From Actinophytocola sp. (GTDB taxonomy: Bacteria; Actinomycetota; Actinomycetes; Mycobacteriales; Pseudonocardiaceae): a stretch of DNA of 64,000 nucleotides. Where the stretch lies: NCBI RefSeq assembly GCF_035942955.1, contig NZ_DASZCQ010000160.1, forward strand, positions 18,878-82,877, given 5' to 3'. The translations under genes were made by a program, and so were the position numbers. Under the pieces are notes generated by a model. The model saw only the letters and a program-made list of their open reading frames with translations, made no database searches and was not told the origin of the DNA. Shown here piece by piece: positions 55,557 through 64,000 of the stretch (position 1 is its first letter; each line of letters begins with the position of its first letter).

Positions 55557-56924
55557 TCAGTTCCGGCATACGGCGCACGACGGCGTCCCGGCCACCGGTG
55601 TGCCGAGTCGCGACGTCTGCAGCGGCACGTTGATCCGCAGCGGTATCGCGGTGTGGTCGTCCGGGGACCCGCCGGCCTCGATCGCGAATGCCCGCACCAG
55701 CCGCTCCACCCGGTAGGCGCCCGGCCGGTCACCGCGACGCAGCAAGCCGGCGTCCATCAACTCGTCGGCGAGCTCGCCCTCGTCGTGCAGGACCGAGTTC
55801 GGGTCGCAGCGAAACGGAAGCCGCGCGACTCGCCTCAGCAGGGTCTTGGCGGCGTCGCTGACCTCCTGGTACGCCGATCTCAGCGACTCGCGCAGGGACA
55901 GGTCGCCGATGCGTAGCCAGTTCAGCGCCCCGTCGCGTTCCATCAGCTTGGCGGTCGCCGTGCACAGCGGCAGGTCGGGCCGCGCGACCAGCTTGCGCAG
56001 CGCGATGTCCAGTGCCAGCGGCAGGTCGCCGCACAGCTCGGCGAGCCGGTCGCACTCCTGCGGCTCGGCCTCGGCCCGCTCGGGTACGGCTGCGGTGATC
56101 ATCGCGATCGAGTCGGCCCGCGGCGGCACGTCCAGCCGGATGCGGCGGACGCCGCCCAACCCCAGCAGGGGCCTGCGGCTGATCACCAGGGTCACGCTGT
56201 GCCGCGACTCGGCCAGCAGCGGGCGCACCTGCCGCTCGTCGCGAACGTTGTCCAGCAGCACCAGCAGCCTCCGCTCGGCCAACAGGGAGCGGTACAGCCC
56301 GGCGCGCTGGTCCACCATGCCCGGCAGCTGATCGGCGGGCACACCCAGGGCGCGCAGGAACCCGTCGAGCACGTACCCGGCGTCCGCCGCGGTGCCGGTC
56401 AGCGGCCCGAGGTCGGCGTACAACTGGCCGTCGACCATGTCGGCGGCGATGCGGTGCGCGTAGTGCAGTGCGAAGTCGCTCTTGCCGATCCCGACCGGAC
56501 CGGTGATCACCACCGGGGTCGGCGCGGGTGCGGAGAGCCGGTCCAGCTCGGTCCGCCTGCCGACGAACCCGCTTGGCCGCAACGGTAGTTGGGCCGGCCG
56601 GGGCATTGCCTGGTCGGCAGGCGAGTTCCTATATCGGCCGCGGGTCGGGGCGTCGGAGTTGGTGAGGCTCGCGGCGCGCATCCAGCGGCGCCGCCATTCC
56701 TCGCGGTCACCGCCGCACGCCGCCACGAACCCGAGCGTGACCTGCAACGTCGGTAATCGTGTGCCGCTTGCCGCGCTGGACAACACGGACGAGGAGAACA
56801 ACGCTGAGCGTGCCATGTCCCGGTAGGTCGGGTTGCCCGCCCGTGCGCGCAGTTCGCGCAGCTCGTTGGCAAAACTGGCCACCACCCCGCCGGTGACATC
56901 AACAGGCTTCTCCGGTCTCGCCAT
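55557..56924 (-). CDS. XRE-type HTH + NB-ARC (STAND) ATPase regulator
   Basis: ORF of 455 aa with N-terminal 'FANELRELRARAGNPTYRDMA', the P-loop 'GPVGIGKSDFA' and 'LLVLLDNV'. Confidence 0.75.
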   Translation of the reverse strand: MARPEKPVDVTGGVVASFANELRELRARAGNPTYRDMARSALFSSSVLSSAASGTRLPTLQVTLGFVAACGGDREEWRRRWMRAASLTNSDAPTRGRYRNSPADQAMPRPAQLPLRPSGFVGRRTELDRLSAPAPTPVVITGPVGIGKSDFALHYAHRIAADMVDGQLYADLGPLTGTAADAGYVLDGFLRALGVPADQLPGMVDQRAGLYRSLLAERRLLVLLDNVRDERQVRPLLAESRHSVTLVISRRPLLGLGGVRRIRLDVPPRADSIAMITAAVPERAEAEPQECDRLAELCGDLPLALDIALRKLVARPDLPLCTATAKLMERDGALNWLRIGDLSLRESLRSAYQEVSDAAKTLLRRVARLPFRCDPNSVLHDEGELADELMDAGLLRRGDRPGAYRVERLVRAFAIEAGGSPDDHTAIPLRINVPLQTSRLGTPVAGTPSCAVCRN

Positions 56925-57313: not shown

Positions 57314-57610
57314 TCAGATGTTGATGATCATCTCGTGGTCGATCTCCACGATCTCCACCGCGAGCTCGGCGAACCGGCCCGCGATGAGCTCTTTGTACGC
57401 CGCGGAGCCGGTATGTACGTCATAGGCCTCCTGGTCGGCGAAGTTCTCGACGAACAGCAGGTAATCCGGGCGCGCCGGATCGCGGTACACCCGAAAGGAC
57501 AGCGTCGCGGGCTCCTGCTCGGGGCCCCACCGGGCGAACTGCCGGACGAGCTCCTCGGCCTCGGCCTGCTTGCCGGGCTTGAGCGGGACCGATAGAACCT
57601 TGGTGAGCAC
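57314..57610 (-). CDS. antibiotic-biosynthesis-monooxygenase (ABM) domain protein
   Basis: From ORF 57314..57700; a GTG at 57610 lies 5 nt after AGGAGG. At ~98 aa it has a ferredoxin-like ABM pattern ('FVENFADQEAYDVH..S..Y'). Confidence 0.7.
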   Translation of the reverse strand: MLTKVLSVPLKPGKQAEAEELVRQFARWGPEQEPATLSFRVYRDPARPDYLLFVENFADQEAYDVHTGSAAYKELIAGRFAELAVEIVEIDHEMIINI

Positions 57611-57759
57611 AGGATCCTCCTGGGTAGGACGCGCAACGAGCCGTGGACACGACGATAGAATTGCCGAGCCGCAGGGAAGTGTCTGGTCAGATGCGGACAA
57701 CTCGGCGGTGTCCGGGTATGGCTGGCGGGCCGGCGGCGGTCCCTTGATAAGTCTGCGAC

Positions 57760-59142
57760 ATGGCGACGTTCAGGGCGGTGGTCACCACCGGCATCTACTG
57801 CCGGCCCGGGTGCGCGGCCAGGCCGCTCGCCGAGAACGTCCGCACATTCGAGCTGGCCGCCACCGCGGAGGCGGCCGGGTACCGCGCCTGTCTGCGCTGC
57901 CGCCCGTACCGGGTCGCCGGTCCGGTCAGCACCGATTCGCCGGAACTGATCTGCCGCGCGGTGCGGCTGATCCTCGACGGGGTGCTCGACGGCGGCACCG
58001 AGGGCACCCTCGGGGCTCGGCTGGCCGTGTCCCCGCGCCACCTGCGCAGGCTGTTCAACGACCACCTCGGCGTGACCCCGGACCAGCTCGCGCGGTCGCG
58101 CCGCGCGCACTTTGCCCGCCGGCTGCTGGACGACTCCGACCTCGCCGTCGCCGACGTGGCGTTCGCCTCGGGGTTCGGCAGCCTGCGGCAGTTCAACCGC
58201 GAGATGCGCCAAGTGTTCCTGGCCTCGCCGAGCGAGCTGCGGATGCGCAGGCGCCGGGCCGACCGGCTGGCCGCCGACGGCGGGCTGGCGATGCGGTTGC
58301 CGTTCCAACCGCCATTCGACTGGGACGGCATCCTCGGCTACCTTGCCGATCGGGCAGTGCCGGGTGTCGAGTCGGTCGACGGACGCGGGTACCGGCGGAC
58401 GATCAGCCTGGACGGCGATGCGGGCATGCTGGAGGTGCACCCGGGCGACCAGGGCAATCTCGTTCTGCGGGCGCACCTGCCGTACTGGGAGGGGCTGATC
58501 CACGTCGTGGAACGGGCGAGCCGGATGGTCGGGATCGACGTGGACAACGGCCCGGCGGTGGCTGCTCTGTCGGCAGATCCGGTGATCGGGCCACTGGTGT
58601 CCGCCCGGCCGGGGCTGCGGGTACCCGGCGCGTGGGGCGAATTCGAGGTGGCCGTGCACACCGTCATCGCCCAGCACTGCGGCCTGCCGATGGCCAGGAG
58701 CCGGATGGGCGCGCTGGTCCGGCGATTCGGACAGCCGGTGCCCGGCCTGACCCACGGGCTGACCCACCTTTTCCCGTCGGCCGAGGTGCTGGCGGGTGCG
58801 GACATCACCGAGCTCGGCCTGCCTTACCGCACCGCCGTTGCCGTCCGGGCGCTGGCCGAGCACGTGGCCGCGGGGGACGTCGTGCTTGACAGCGGCGCCA
58901 TCACGGCCGAGCTGGTGTCCTGCCTGTCCGCGATCGAGGGGATCGGCGCGGATGCCGCCGAGCAGATCGCGCTGCGCCTCGGCCAGCGGGACGCGTTCCC
59001 GCACAGCGCTCCGTACGTCCGCCGCGCGTTGCGGGAACTCGGCGTCCTAGAACCGGTTCTGGTCGCCGAGGGGTGGCGGCCGTGGCGCGCGGTCGCGGTG
59101 GCGCACCTGACCGCCTACGGGGCCGCGGCCGGAGCCAGGTGA
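57760..59142 (+). CDS. Ada-type methylphosphotriester sensor / AraC HTH fused to AlkA-like HhH-GPD domain
   Basis: ORF of 460 aa with 'YCRPGCAARP...ACLRCRP' (Ada Zn site), the AraC HTH 'FGSLRQFNREMRQVF', and the HhH 'IEGIGADAAEQIALR'. Confidence 0.8.
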   Translation: MATFRAVVTTGIYCRPGCAARPLAENVRTFELAATAEAAGYRACLRCRPYRVAGPVSTDSPELICRAVRLILDGVLDGGTEGTLGARLAVSPRHLRRLFNDHLGVTPDQLARSRRAHFARRLLDDSDLAVADVAFASGFGSLRQFNREMRQVFLASPSELRMRRRRADRLAADGGLAMRLPFQPPFDWDGILGYLADRAVPGVESVDGRGYRRTISLDGDAGMLEVHPGDQGNLVLRAHLPYWEGLIHVVERASRMVGIDVDNGPAVAALSADPVIGPLVSARPGLRVPGAWGEFEVAVHTVIAQHCGLPMARSRMGALVRRFGQPVPGLTHGLTHLFPSAEVLAGADITELGLPYRTAVAVRALAEHVAAGDVVLDSGAITAELVSCLSAIEGIGADAAEQIALRLGQRDAFPHSAPYVRRALRELGVLEPVLVAEGWRPWRAVAVAHLTAYGAAAGAR

Positions 59143-60089: not shown

Positions 60090-60200
60090 TCCGCCCACGG
60101 CGTTTCCTCGGTTGATTGTCCGGCTCGGTCAATCCTTTCGGCCAACCGGCCAGGTGGCTTGAATCGGAAGACATCAGCGCAGCCGAGGGAAAGCGATCGA

Positions 60201-61445
60201 ATGACAGCCACATATGTTCCGCCCAGCCCGGCCGGGGCAGGTACCGATCCGGTGGCACCTGCCTCGTCCGCGGCGGAGATCCTGGCCCGTGCCAAGGCAG
60301 TCGCGCCGCTGCTGCGGGAGCGCGCAGCCGAAATCGAGCGCGAGCGGCGGTTGCCTGCCGACGTGGTGGAGATGCTGCGCGGCACGGGCGTGTTCCGGAT
60401 GGGGTTCGGCCGGAGCTGGGGCGGTCCCGAGCTGAGCTCGATGGAACAGACCGAGGTGATCGAGGCACTGTCCTATGGGGACGCGGCCGCCGGCTGGTGC
60501 GCGATGATCGGCTCGGACTCCGGGTTGTACGCCCAGTTTCTTGACGAGTCGGTCGCCAAGGAGATGTTCACCAGCCTGGACATGGTCACCGCGGGACTGC
60601 TGTTCCCCACCGGCCGGGCCGAGCTGGTCCCCGGCGGTTACCGGCTCACCGGCCGCTGGCAGTTCGGCAGCGGCATCACGCACGCCGACTGGGTGATCTC
60701 CGGGGCGTTCATCTACCGGGACGGACAGCCGGAGCCGGGCCCGGACGGCGACCCGCACGACTCGAAGCTGTTCATCGTGCCGAGCGCCGACGTCGAGGTG
60801 ATCGACACCTGGCACAGCACCGGCCTGGCCGGCAGCGGCAGTTGCGACTACACCATCACCGATGTGTTCGTGCCCGAGAGCCGCACCGTCACCTTCGACG
60901 CCGTGCGCAACGGCGCGGGGCCGCTCGCCCAGCCGGAGGTGCACATGCGCAACATGCCTGGCGTACCGCTCGGTGTCGCCCGTGCCGCGTTGGACCACGT
61001 CCGCGAGATCGCCGCCACCCGCGTGAGCCCGGTGACCGGTGCGATGGCCGACGACTACCGCACCCAGGTCACCATCGCCGACTGCGAGGCCGACCTCGCC
61101 GCCACCAGGCACGCGGTGTACGCCGCCATGCGCCGGCAGCACGACGTGCTGGCCGCGGGCGGCACGCTTGAGGACCTCACCCCGAACGAGCGGGCCGCGC
61201 TCCCGCTGTCCCGTAGGCACGCCTTCCGCACCGCGCGTTCGATCGTGGCCCGGCTGTACGACCTGCTCCAGACCACCTCGATCTACCAGCGGTCCCCGAT
61301 GGACCGGTGGCTGCGGGACACGAACACGATGTGCCAGCACATCGTGGCCCAGGACCGCATCCTGCAGTCTGCGGGTGCCTACCTGCTGGGCGGCAAGCCT
61401 TCGTTCGCGCTGTCGCTCGGCATCACCGGGGCGACCGGCCGCTGA
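60201..61445 (+). CDS. acyl-CoA dehydrogenase-fold flavin-dependent monooxygenase/oxidase
   Basis: From ORF 60159..61445 (ATG at 60201). It has the group D flavoprotein pattern 'TGRWQFGSGITHADW', 'WHSTGLAGSGS'. Confidence 0.7.
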   Translation: MTATYVPPSPAGAGTDPVAPASSAAEILARAKAVAPLLRERAAEIERERRLPADVVEMLRGTGVFRMGFGRSWGGPELSSMEQTEVIEALSYGDAAAGWCAMIGSDSGLYAQFLDESVAKEMFTSLDMVTAGLLFPTGRAELVPGGYRLTGRWQFGSGITHADWVISGAFIYRDGQPEPGPDGDPHDSKLFIVPSADVEVIDTWHSTGLAGSGSCDYTITDVFVPESRTVTFDAVRNGAGPLAQPEVHMRNMPGVPLGVARAALDHVREIAATRVSPVTGAMADDYRTQVTIADCEADLAATRHAVYAAMRRQHDVLAAGGTLEDLTPNERAALPLSRRHAFRTARSIVARLYDLLQTTSIYQRSPMDRWLRDTNTMCQHIVAQDRILQSAGAYLLGGKPSFALSLGITGATGR

Positions 61446-61609
61446 CGCCGGACGGCGCCTTGGCGGACGCGCAATTCCTTTCAGTACAAGGCGATCGTCG
61501 GCGAGATAGTTCGTCCCAAATGGACAGATGTGCGATCGCCGTACAGACACAAGGATCTCGGCGAGCTCGCCGCCCGGCGGGCGAGCCGACCAAATAGTCA
61601 GGTGGGAAT

Positions 61610-62896
61610 GTGACTGGGCAAGATGTCGATGTTCTGATGATCGGAGCAGGGCCGGCGAATCTGGCGCTCGCGGTTGCGATCGAGGAGTCCGGTGCGCTCC
61701 AGGTGGCTGAGAACGCCCTGATGCTGGAGCAGTATCCGGACATCAAGTGGCAGCGCGACCTGCTGCTGCCGTGGGCGCGCAGCCAGGTGTCCTTCCTCAA
61801 GGACCTGGTGACCCTGCGGAACCCGCGGAGCCGCTTCTCATTCCTGAACTACCTGCACCAGCAGGGGCAGCTCGACGACTTCGTGAACCTGTCCACCTTC
61901 AACCCCTACCGCTGGCAGCTGTCGGCCTACCAGCAGTGGGTCGCCGAGAGCCTTGAGCACGTCCGGATCCGCTTCAATGCCCGCACCGAGCGGATCGACC
62001 CGCGGTACGCCGAGGACGGCTCGATCAACGGGTGGACCGTCACCCTGTCCGACGGCGACACCATCGGCTGCCGCGATCTGGTCGTCGGCACCGGCAGGGA
62101 CGTGCACATCCCGGAGGTCTTCCGCGACGTGCCCGCGGACCGCGTCGTGCACAGCACCCGGTACGCCAGCAGGGTCACCCGGCTGGCGCCGACCGAGCGG
62201 CCGCTGCGCCCGGTGGTCATCGGTGGTGCGCAGAGCGCCGCGGAGATGTTCATGGCGCTGCACCAGGACATCCCGGACTGCGAGCCCACGATGATCATGC
62301 GGTCGGTCGGGCTGAAGAACTACCAGACGAGCAAGTTCGTCAACGAGCTGTTCTACCCGTCGTTCGTCGACGAGTTCTACAACATGCCGCCGGAGACGCG
62401 GATGCAGGTGCTCGACGAGATGCACCTGACCAACTACGCCGGCCTGGCGCCGCCGTTCCTGGATGAGATCTACTCGATGCTGTACCAGCAGAAGATGCTG
62501 GGCCGGCAGCGGTCAACGGTGCGGCACATGACCGAGGTCGTCGGCGCCCGGATGGACCACGACGAGGTCGTGCTCGACCTGCGCGACCGCAAGACCGGCA
62601 AGATCGAGCCGCTGCGCTGCGACGTGGTGTTCCTCGGCACCGGGTACGCCCCCCGGATGCCCGCCATGGTGGCCGACCTGGCGAAGCGGGTCGGGATAGC
62701 GGACATCAACGTCAGCCGGCGCTACCGGGTGGACCTCGGTGACTCGGCCTGGGGTGCGATCTACCTGCAGGGGGTCAACGAGCAGACCCACGGCATCGCC
62801 GACTCGCTGATCAGCGTGCTGGCCCACCGCTCCCAGGAGATCACCGAGGACCTGCTCGACCGGCGGGCGGTCGCCGAAGCCGCCGTGGAGGTGTGA
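61610..62896 (+). CDS. L-lysine/L-ornithine N-hydroxylase (SidA/IucD/PvdA family flavin monooxygenase)
   Basis: ORF of 428 aa with 'IGAGPANLALA' (FAD), 'IGGAQSAAE' (NADPH) and 'FLGTGY'. Confidence 0.85.
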   Translation: MTGQDVDVLMIGAGPANLALAVAIEESGALQVAENALMLEQYPDIKWQRDLLLPWARSQVSFLKDLVTLRNPRSRFSFLNYLHQQGQLDDFVNLSTFNPYRWQLSAYQQWVAESLEHVRIRFNARTERIDPRYAEDGSINGWTVTLSDGDTIGCRDLVVGTGRDVHIPEVFRDVPADRVVHSTRYASRVTRLAPTERPLRPVVIGGAQSAAEMFMALHQDIPDCEPTMIMRSVGLKNYQTSKFVNELFYPSFVDEFYNMPPETRMQVLDEMHLTNYAGLAPPFLDEIYSMLYQQKMLGRQRSTVRHMTEVVGARMDHDEVVLDLRDRKTGKIEPLRCDVVFLGTGYAPRMPAMVADLAKRVGIADINVSRRYRVDLGDSAWGAIYLQGVNEQTHGIADSLISVLAHRSQEITEDLLDRRAVAEAAVEV

Positions 62897-63273
62897 CCGA
62901 CATGATCGAGATCCGCAACCTGGACCGGGCCAACCTCACCAAGGCGTACGGCCTGGACTCCCAGCGCCTGTTGCCCTGGCCCGCGCTCAACGCCCCGTTC
63001 GAGGGTGCGTGGTGCATCCTGCGCTCCGGCGACGAGTCCACGCCGCACTCCCACCACGAGTACGAGATCTTCATCGCGATGTCGGGCGCCGCCCAACTGG
63101 ACGTCGACGGGCAGCGGTATGACTTCGTCGCCGGCGACATCGTGCACCTGCCCCCGGGCTGCACGCACAAGGTCGTCAACGACAGCCCGGCCGACTTCGA
63201 GTACTACGGCATCTGGTGGGACACCGAGATGTCCGAGAAGTTCCTCGCCATGCACGAGGAGCAGTCCAGATGA
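62893..63273 (+). CDS. cupin domain protein
   Basis: ORF of 126 aa with the 'HSHHEYEIFIAMSG' and 'GDIVHLPPGCTHK' cupin motifs. It overlaps both neighbours by 4 nt. Confidence 0.8.
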   Translation: MTDMIEIRNLDRANLTKAYGLDSQRLLPWPALNAPFEGAWCILRSGDESTPHSHHEYEIFIAMSGAAQLDVDGQRYDFVAGDIVHLPPGCTHKVVNDSPADFEYYGIWWDTEMSEKFLAMHEEQSR

Positions 63274-64000
63274 GCCGGACGACGCTGATCATCTCGCCGG
63301 CCCCCACGGCCAACGGCGATCTGCATCTCGGCCACATCGCCGGCCCGTTCCTCGCAGCCGACGTCCACACCCGCTACCTGCGGGCCACCGGCCGCAACGT
63401 CCTACTGGCCACGGGGTTCCAGGACACCTCGACCTACGTGGTCACCACCGCGCGGCGGCTGGGCATGACGCCGAAGGCGCTCGTGGCCAGGTCGGCGGAG
63501 CAGATCGAGACGACCCTGGCCGCGGTCGGGGTCGGCGTCGACGGGTTCACCGGCGACGAGGACCGGTTCGTCAAGACGGTGCTGGGGTTCATGGAGCAGT
63601 TGCACGCCGCCGGCAAGTTCGAGCTGCGCACGATGACCTTCCCGTACTCGCCGGCGACCGGTGAGTACCTTGTGGACGGTTACGCGCGGGGCGGCTGCCC
63701 GCTCTGCCTCGCCGACGGGTGCGCCGGACTGTGCGAAAGCTGCGGCAACCCGATCGCCGCGGGTGACCTGATCGATCCGAAGTCGACGATGAACCCCGAC
63801 GACCCGGTGGAGCTGCGCGAGGCACAGGTGCTCGTGCTGCCCATGGAGCGGTACCGCGGGCGGATCCGCGCGCACTTCGCCGAGCACGGCAAGGCGATGC
63901 GTCCGCACATGGTCCAGGCGATCGAGGAGATGCTGTCCCGGCCGCTACCGGACTACCCGATCACCTACCCGATCTCGTGGGGCATTCCGGCGCCGTTCCA
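63270..64000 (+). CDS. methionyl-tRNA synthetase-like class I ligase (standalone paralogue); 3' end lies outside the window
   Basis: The frame is open from the ATG at 63270 (ATGA overlap) to the window end. Motifs: 'PAPTANGDLHLGHIAG' (HIGH) and the 'CPLCLADGCAGLCESCG' zinc knuckle. Confidence 0.8.
   Translation, partial: MSRTTLIISPAPTANGDLHLGHIAGPFLAADVHTRYLRATGRNVLLATGFQDTSTYVVTTARRLGMTPKALVARSAEQIETTLAAVGVGVDGFTGDEDRFVKTVLGFMEQLHAAGKFELRTMTFPYSPATGEYLVDGYARGGCPLCLADGCAGLCESCGNPIAAGDLIDPKSTMNPDDPVELREAQVLVLPMERYRGRIRAHFAEHGKAMRPHMVQAIEEMLSRPLPDYPITYPISWGIPAPF

Follow-up and report, generated by a model that had tools for sequence, protein, structure and literature searches.

A probable split-type, tyrosine-utilizing hydrazine synthetase cassette at the front of a conserved actinobacterial operon in Actinophytocola sp.

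The window analyzed here is a 64,000-nucleotide stretch of the Actinophytocola sp. genome (contig C160:18878-82877; assembly of 7.44 Mb in 364 contigs), and the contig runs 8.9 kb past the end of this window. Close to that end lie genes for a flavin-dependent amine N-monooxygenase, a small cupin, and a ligase resembling methionyl-tRNA synthetase (MetRS), which together probably form a split-type hydrazine synthetase cassette. The GC content of the locus is about 0.69, and analysis of GC at third codon positions (GC3) resolved a single clear series of co-directional genes (Table 1). A preliminary description of this DNA had placed the three open reading frames (ORFs) side by side, which Pfam searches bear out (PF13434, Cupin_2, and PF09334). 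All genes of that set are present and intact within the window, with the ligase gene reading on across its edge; in full, it occupies positions 82147-83688 of contig C160, encodes 513 amino acids (aa), and stops 811 nucleotides beyond the window.

The description had further reported 4-nucleotide overlaps between these genes. One of them is real, namely the ATGA at 63270-63273 that joins the cupin and ligase genes, while the other, between the hydroxylase and cupin genes, requires the cupin to start at GTG 62893. The same holds for the reported cupin length of 126 aa: the in-frame ATG at 62902, 5 nucleotides past the hydroxylase stop, gives 123 aa, and cupin orthologs are called at 123 and 122 aa, matching the ATG start. 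Upstream, the ORF of a protein with the acyl-CoA dehydrogenase (ACAD) fold spans 60159-61445 and opens at TTG 60159; its likely start is the ATG at 60201, for a length of 414 aa that the orthologs share. The cluster was expected to extend past the window, and indeed the remaining 8.9 kb of contig carries the genes from the D-amino-acid oxidase (DAO) family flavoenzyme through SBP_bac_5, of which the GNAT and NB-ARC regulator genes span contig C160 88406-90888. Since the lengths of the genes past the window all agree with those of their orthologs, the operon looks intact.

Table 1. Genes and motifs of the hydrazine synthetase locus (window coordinates; genes on the rest of the contig are given by their order)
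Feature	Position	Strand	Evidence or remark
PEP-mutase/isocitrate-lyase superfamily protein, 294 aa	59205..60089	+	PF13714, E 3e-82
ACAD-fold oxygenase component, two-component flavin monooxygenase (predicted)	60201..61445	+	Acyl-CoA_dh_2; PF08028, PF02771
Flavin-dependent amine N-monooxygenase (Lys/Orn family), 428 aa	61610..62896	+	PF13434, E 2e-87
Standalone predicted zinc-cupin, 123 aa	62902..63273	+	PF07883 (Cupin_2); 126 aa from GTG 62893
MetRS-like ligase, first 243 of 513 aa in window	63270..64000	+	PF09334, E 3e-40 (window part)
HLGH signature, HIGH-motif equivalent, ligase residues 19-22	63324..63335	+	aligned to PyrN 147-HLGH-150
Zinc knuckle C143-P-L-C146 ... C155-E-S-C158 in connective-peptide insertion	63696..63743	+	aligned to PyrN C272/C275/C285/C288
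DAO-family flavoenzyme, 379 aa	past window; starts 1 base after ligase stop		
ATP-grasp L-amino-acid-ligase-like protein, 432 aa	past window, after DAO		
Avidin-like ORF, 120 aa	past window, between ATP-grasp and BBE		recognized via orthologs
BBE/FAD_binding_4 oxidase, 451 aa	past window, after 120-aa ORF		
Flavin reductase	past window, after BBE oxidase		
Eis-like GNAT, 395 aa	past window, after flavin reductase		start overlaps reductase stop
HTH/NB-ARC regulator	past window, after GNAT	convergent	
Family-5 solute-binding protein (SBP_bac_5)	past window, after NB-ARC regulator		

Among sequences of solved structures, the ligase is nearest to PyrN-C (9VQ4/9L8V; E = 2.7e-52), followed at a distance by the best true MetRS (1RQG; E = 1.5e-37). 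According to the depositors' preprint, the PyrN-C entries represent that part of the pyrazomycin hydrazine synthetase which acts as an O-aminoacyl-hydroxylamine synthetase. PyrN-C was also the best Foldseek hit (template modeling [TM] scores of 0.84/0.81) of an AlphaFold2 (AF2) model of the ligase that was built with 33 homologs (pLDDT of 88.6, pTM of 0.90). The HIGH motif and zinc knuckle noticed earlier were both recovered, as H19-L-G-H22 and one C143-x2-C146 ... C155-x2-C158 knuckle. In the alignment, H19-LGH22 and K336-FSTS340 match PyrN 147-HLGH-150 and 458-KFSTG-462, and HLGH and the four knuckle cysteines are invariant across the 33 homologs. At the positions aligned to the second zinc cluster of PyrN, the ligase has no cysteines.

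Could this protein be an auxiliary MetRS instead, a stress or antibiotic-resistance copy that happens to lie among unrelated genes? In full length it matches Pfam tRNA-synt_1g with an E value of 1e-58, and the MetRS fold is kept, including the C-terminal helix bundle. Yet its score against the best NCBIfam MetRS model is 213 bits, where the cutoff is 553, and it falls below every curated MetRS equivalog cutoff. The housekeeping MetRS of this genome is encoded on contig C23; that protein scores 478 bits to PF09334 and has Anticodon_3 and Anticodon_1 matches, while the ligase matches neither Pfam model, and at nearly all aligned positions the pocket of the ligase differs from that of the housekeeping enzyme. 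The gene order with hydroxylase, cupin, and oxidase is, moreover, kept across orders. We find the auxiliary MetRS scarcely credible and rejected both it and a housekeeping role on the sub-cutoff score and the separate C23 enzyme with its anticodon domains. The preliminary description had proposed loss of the anticodon-binding domain as a check; the Pfam domains are indeed gone, but residues 377-485 are still predicted to form a helical bundle. Since PyrN-C has such a C-terminal bundle as well, anticodon-domain loss is the wrong discriminator for the family.

A homologue search with the ligase gathered more than 100 clusters of standalone proteins of about 505-525 aa with 64-92% identity, from many actinobacterial genera. 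One of the matches is ADG76495.1 (UniRef D5UDN9) from Cellulomonas flavigena DSM 20109, which has 513 aa like the present ligase and is 68-69% identical to it. In a maximum likelihood tree, the two fall with Saccharothrix, Nocardiopsis, and Kineosporia proteins in a clade with 100/100 support, so that the ligase groups with a characterized hydrazine synthetase component, as the preliminary description had anticipated. The sequences for this tree came from tblastn-anchored frames, and its characterized members are PyrN-C (from the PDB alignment) and D5UDN9, without Spb40, Tri28, or ForJ. Together with its greater similarity to PyrN-C than to true MetRS, the orthology to D5UDN9 supports the early suggestion of N-N (hydrazine) bond-forming machinery and, at the level of sequence, the assignment of the ligase as a MetRS-like O-aminoacyl-hydroxylamine synthetase of the hydrazine synthetase family.

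The residues aligned to the PyrN pocket are the same in the ligase and D5UDN9 (P10, A11, T13, N15, Q51, S54, Y56, D298, N299, P302, and F303), and most are invariant in the 33 homologs; the pocket helix NPNAEPAAWSIYC of the same alignment is common to both. This pocket is unlike the motifs for glycine (TPDQWMNH), threonine (SADQWYGH), and glutamate (SFVQALNR). Zhao et al. (2021) expressed D5UDN9 in Escherichia coli together with its cupin (D5UDN8) and NbtG, a lysine hydroxylase, and obtained a Lys-Tyr conjugate characterized by nuclear magnetic resonance (NMR) (PMC8664883, Supp. Fig. 31). Given the orthology to D5UDN9 and the identical pocket, L-tyrosine is the best-supported candidate substrate of the present ligase.

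The cupin points in the same direction. It is 75% identical to the cupin directly upstream of D5UDN9 (the D5UDN8 position), and its PDB matches include 4RD7 (E = 1e-42), Plu4264 (4MV2; 7e-31), and RHS1 (5UQP; 2e-6). RHS1 is a standalone cupin that forms an N-N bond; its zinc site consists of D63, H65, E69, and H103, and E69 is essential. The spacing of these residues is that of H52-x-H54-x3-E58 ... H92 in the present cupin (126-aa numbering; nucleotides 63046-63066 and 63166-63168), which presumably catalyzes the rearrangement that forms the N-N bond. As noted in the preliminary description, cupin and ligase are separate ORFs; such a split layout is not unusual, being found also in RHS1, D5UDN8/D5UDN9, AsnHS, and FuzE/FuzG. 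For the N-monooxygenase, the top PDB matches are PvdA (an ornithine hydroxylase; E = 8e-77) and MbtG (lysine; 3e-67), followed by SidA and KtzI. Since it resembles both ornithine and lysine hydroxylases, similarity cannot assign its substrate; we presume that it makes N6-hydroxylysine, with ornithine as the other possible substrate.

A locus that combines a GNAT and an SBP_bac_5 gene with a hydroxylase of the SidA/IucD family might also suggest a hydroxamate siderophore or metallophore, where the GNAT or ATP-grasp enzyme would acylate the hydroxylamine, the ligase would give an O- or N-acyl hydroxylamine, and uptake of the metal complex would fall to the solute-binding protein. Hydroxamates arising by a nonenzymatic O-to-N shift are known by-products of such ligases. 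This scenario is very improbable, however: the cupin retains its catalytic glutamate and is translationally coupled to the ligase, the product of D5UDN8/D5UDN9 is N-N linked, and most orthologous clusters lack the GNAT. Siderophore synthetases of the IucA/IucC type downstream had been named as what would speak against a hydrazine synthetase, but the 8.9 kb to the contig end contain no IucA/IucC or nonribosomal peptide synthetase (NRPS) gene, and the siderophore cluster was rejected for lack of such an adjacent gene. The two IucA/IucC-family genes of this genome are on another contig (C195:8025-10461, minus strand), in what looks like a separate, unlinked NRPS-independent siderophore locus.

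The preliminary description had also contrasted the ACAD fold of the upstream flavoenzyme with the DAO type of other cassettes. The fold is as described, but it replaces nothing, as a DAO-type gene lies directly 3' of the ligase gene. This DAO-family protein is sarcosine-oxidase-like and, by family, fits the role of Spb39 and FuzF, which would be C-N cleavage that frees a hydrazino acid. In Actinosynnema sp. NPDC059335, an otherwise complete cluster has no DAO-type gene between the ligase and ATP-grasp genes; either cleavage is done elsewhere in that strain, or it stops at the Lys-linked hydrazine. The ACAD-fold protein itself has PDB matches to Rv3094c (E = 1e-48), HsaA (1e-33), XiaF, and C2-HPAH, which are group D two-component monooxygenases, several of which hydroxylate phenols. 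Its best NCBIfam model is HsaA (154 bits, under the cutoff). Judged by these matches, it is an HsaA/Rv3094c-like two-component monooxygenase, neither an acyl-CoA dehydrogenase nor a substitute for the DAO. The flavin reductase of the cluster is HsaB/StyB/HpaC-like and is the probable partner of this oxygenase, and by analogy it is reasonable to suppose that the pair would hydroxylate a tyrosine-derived ring.

Taken together, these results suggest that the locus probably holds a split-type, tyrosine-utilizing hydrazine synthetase cassette, predicted to be the front half of a conserved operon that is independent of NRPS and polyketide synthase (PKS) enzymes. First, the flavin N-monooxygenase would hydroxylate the side chain amine of L-lysine (or possibly of ornithine). 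The MetRS-like protein would then adenylate L-tyrosine, the specificity expected from D5UDN9 and its identical pocket, and esterify the N-OH group. Third, the zinc cupin would rearrange the O-tyrosyl-hydroxylamine, forming the N-N bond of a Lys-Tyr hydrazine; the in vivo evidence for this N-N product comes from the orthologous D5UDN8/D5UDN9 pair and the mechanism from PyrN and RHS1. Finally, the DAO/sarcosine-oxidase-type enzyme may cut the C6-N bond of lysine and release alpha-hydrazino-tyrosine, by analogy with Spb39 and FuzF.

Several points weigh against this interpretation. The Foldseek margin is small, with E values of 1.6e-31 for PyrN-C and 3.2e-29 for the Pyrococcus abyssi MetRS (1RQG), and one position of the pocket helix is Ala in one and Gly in the other of the ligase and D5UDN9. 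The nearest solved relative of the N-monooxygenase, PvdA, hydroxylates ornithine. The D5UDN9/D5UDN8 reaction worked in vivo alone, where the lysine hydroxylase was a foreign one, and reconstitution in vitro failed (PMC8664883); the native substrate might thus differ and be, for example, hydroxylated tyrosine or ornithine. Lastly, all steps past the DAO-type oxidase are speculative and drawn from analogy at the family level only.

Some of these points feed a variant in which the machinery is the same and the substrates differ. Here, the acceptor would be a modified tyrosine (such as L-DOPA, if it were made first by the HsaA-like oxygenase and its reductase) or the donor would be N5-hydroxyornithine, and tyrosine and lysine would have served as surrogates in E. 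coli. Beyond the failure with tyrosine in vitro and the ornithine hydroxylase as top solved relative, an aromatic-hydroxylase-like two-component monooxygenase is invariably present in the cluster, and hydrazine synthetases are promiscuous for hydroxylamines. Nevertheless, the orthologous pair gave a Lys-Tyr conjugate that was isolated and characterized by NMR, and most characterized cassettes use lysine; we regard such modified substrates as unlikely and retain unmodified tyrosine and lysine in the proposed pathway.

Downstream of alpha-hydrazino-tyrosine, the remaining enzymes allow only speculative assignments. The ATP-grasp protein is nearest to L-amino-acid ligases and might acylate the hydrazine or couple its carboxylate; FuzC provides a precedent of an ATP-grasp ligase that acylates a hydrazine to form a hydrazide (PMC13149037). 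The HsaA-like oxygenase and flavin reductase might hydroxylate the phenol ring. The BBE-type enzyme is nearest to Clz9/Tcz9 and EncM, and with the avidin-like barrel it might oxidize or cyclize an intermediate, whereas the GNAT might acetylate an intermediate or confer self-protection. The 120-aa protein between the ATP-grasp and BBE genes had no Pfam or PDB sequence match, but its AF2 model (pLDDT of 88.8) is an eight-stranded barrel that finds avidins at TM scores of 0.60-0.65, and its orthologs bear a precomputed Avidin_like match. In Saccharothrix, the avidin-like barrel and the BBE enzyme are fused into one 571-aa protein, which argues that both act together. The present genome and most genera have them as two overlapping ORFs instead. 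A frameshift in the present BBE gene, which is short compared with the Saccharothrix protein, was considered and rejected: the region holds a 120-aa avidin-like ORF and a 451-aa BBE enzyme, as in Cellulomonas.

Comparison across genomes delimits a conserved core of nine genes, encoding the ACAD-fold oxygenase, N-monooxygenase, cupin, ligase, DAO, ATP-grasp, avidin-like, BBE, and flavin reductase proteins. At least eight genera of actinobacteria carry this set (Cellulomonas, Saccharothrix, Umezawaea, Actinosynnema, Nocardiopsis, Kineosporia, Longispora, and Streptomyces, the last represented by S. ipomoeae), with the order largely kept. The ACAD-fold gene is present in every orthologous cluster, although it is sometimes relocated after the flavin reductase gene. 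The nearest cluster is that of an Umezawaea metagenome-assembled genome, with 88-91% identity for the ACAD-fold protein and the ligase. A search for related loci with a single protein returned 11 loci, close relatives only, and when 400 genomes were sampled evenly across the class, a Tyr-type ortholog turned up in just one further genome; the cluster is thus widespread but sparse.

Outside the core, the PEP-mutase-like gene, SBP_bac_5, an MFS transporter, and a DJ-1/AraC regulator vary among clusters. The PEP-mutase-family protein falls under every NCBIfam equivalog cutoff, and homologs with 67-84% identity flank the cluster in Umezawaea, Nocardiopsis, Cellulomonas, Kineosporia, and S. ipomoeae. 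The GNAT is missing from most orthologous clusters, and a GNAT and an NB-ARC regulator between flavin reductase and SBP_bac_5 are found in this genome only. In Longispora fulva, a GNAT gene lies beside the cupin gene, and the two GNATs are 83% identical, above any core protein compared between both genomes, which suggests a mobile accessory module.

On the minus strand at 55557-56924 of the window lies a gene for an HTH_31/NB-ARC-type regulator that shares 45% identity with the one at the opposite end of the cluster. NB-ARC/HTH regulators related to this flanking pair recur in other orthologous clusters; because homologs accompany the cluster in other genera, the two may be cluster-situated regulators. 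Between the upstream regulator and the PEP-mutase-like gene (57314-59142), there are an ABM monooxygenase gene on the minus strand and an Ada/AlkA-type regulator-glycosylase gene on the plus strand. These two are probably not part of the cluster, as they show synteny only with Saccharothrix, Actinosynnema sp. NPDC059335, and Umezawaea.

Two further loci in this genome encode related machinery. Contig C194 carries a second hydrazine synthetase cassette (C194:22678-32198, minus strand), with a cupin and a MetRS-like ligase 59% and 53% identical to the present ones. The pocket of that ligase begins TP..D..Q and resembles the glycine type. The cassette also encodes an N-monooxygenase, a TauD-family dioxygenase, a 647-aa NAD_binding_9 flavoenzyme, an ATP-grasp protein, an MFS transporter, and a hotdog thioesterase, a layout that recalls the fuscazine cluster and is more fuz-like than the present cassette. 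About 10 kb upstream of it, a type I PKS is represented by its C-terminal part (KR, DH), and a 4HBT_2 thioesterase comes next. On contig C316 (C316:1648-9786, minus strand), a third MetRS-like paralog of 534 aa (124 bits to PF09334) sits on a very long branch of the tree; around it lie an N-monooxygenase-like gene, a DAO-type oxidase, an MFS transporter, and two ATP-grasp genes, and directly after the ligase gene there is a weak cupin match (C316:2883-3158; 27% identity). With the locus described here, this makes three such cassettes in one genome.

What the operon makes is a more tentative matter. Full-text literature searches returned no report of the final product of a Tyr-type cluster. The nine-gene core may possibly make a structurally undescribed, tyrosine-derived N-N natural product, for which an alpha-hydrazino-tyrosine or -DOPA hydrazide and an N-N heterocycle whose ring is closed by the avidin-like/BBE pair are candidates. 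In the former case, the product would be a naturally occurring relative of carbidopa, a synthetic inhibitor of decarboxylases. No larger family of enzymes that form N-N bonds is known than the hydrazine synthetases, which attract interest as biocatalysts and also as markers by which diazo, pyrazole, triazene, and hydrazide natural products can be found. Published work already covers split hydrazine synthetases and the Tyr-specific pair, and evidence for the tyrosine-type enzyme has until now come from an isolated pair in E. coli alone; what is new here is an intact copy inside a full conserved operon. Comparing clusters separates the conserved core from the optional GNAT, NB-ARC regulator, PEP-mutase-like gene, and SBP/MFS genes, and the core so defined offers a specific minimal set of genes to express heterologously in the search for the product. 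We consider it a good, if unsurprising, genome-mining lead.

With respect to known systems, the locus shares an N-hydroxylase, cupin and MetRS-like synthetase, and DAO-type oxidase with Spb38/Spb39/Spb40 (s56-p1), Tri26-28 (triacsin), and AzsL/AzsM/AzsN (azaserine). The enzymes of these three pathways, however, are cupin-MetRS fusions that use glycine and have the motif TPDQWMNH, whereas the present ligase is split from its cupin and its pocket begins PA..Q..S; AzsN additionally bears a carrier domain. Their downstream chemistry is based on NRPS, PKS, or carrier proteins, in contrast to the ATP-grasp and BBE enzymes found here.

Like PyrN of the pyrazomycin pathway (9L8V, 9VQ4, 9VQJ, and 9VR2), the ligase has HLGH, KFST(G/S), and one common zinc knuckle, and the cupin shares the spacing of its metal/Glu motif with RHS1 (5UQP). 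Identity between the ligase and PyrN is only about 26-27%, though, and PyrN has two zinc clusters where the ligase has one. PyrN binds D-Glu through Arg390 and Arg425; at these sites, the ligase has P302/F303 and small residues. Cleavage in the PyrN pathway involves a saccharopine-dehydrogenase-like enzyme, while the enzyme here is of the DAO type. The fuscazine (Fuz) system resembles the present cluster in its cupin/ligase split, its flavin oxidoreductase, and its NRPS-free, ATP-grasp-based assembly, but it differs in using (hydroxy)arginine, in having an Fe/2-oxoglutarate hydroxylase and a tRNA deacylase, and in lacking BBE, avidin-like, and HsaA-like genes.

Finally, the C. flavigena locus differs from the present one in its surroundings: the Actinophytocola copy adds the Eis-like GNAT and the NB-ARC/HTH regulator between the flavin reductase and SBP genes, and the PEP-mutase-family gene, which is divergent in Cellulomonas, runs in the same direction as the cluster here. 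The split architecture is the same in D5UDN8 (122 aa) and D5UDN9 (513 aa), the pocket of D5UDN9 matches, and the C. flavigena gene order, from the ACAD-fold, N-monooxygenase, cupin, ligase, DAO, and ATP-grasp genes to the avidin-like, BBE, flavin reductase, and SBP_bac_5 genes, is also found here.

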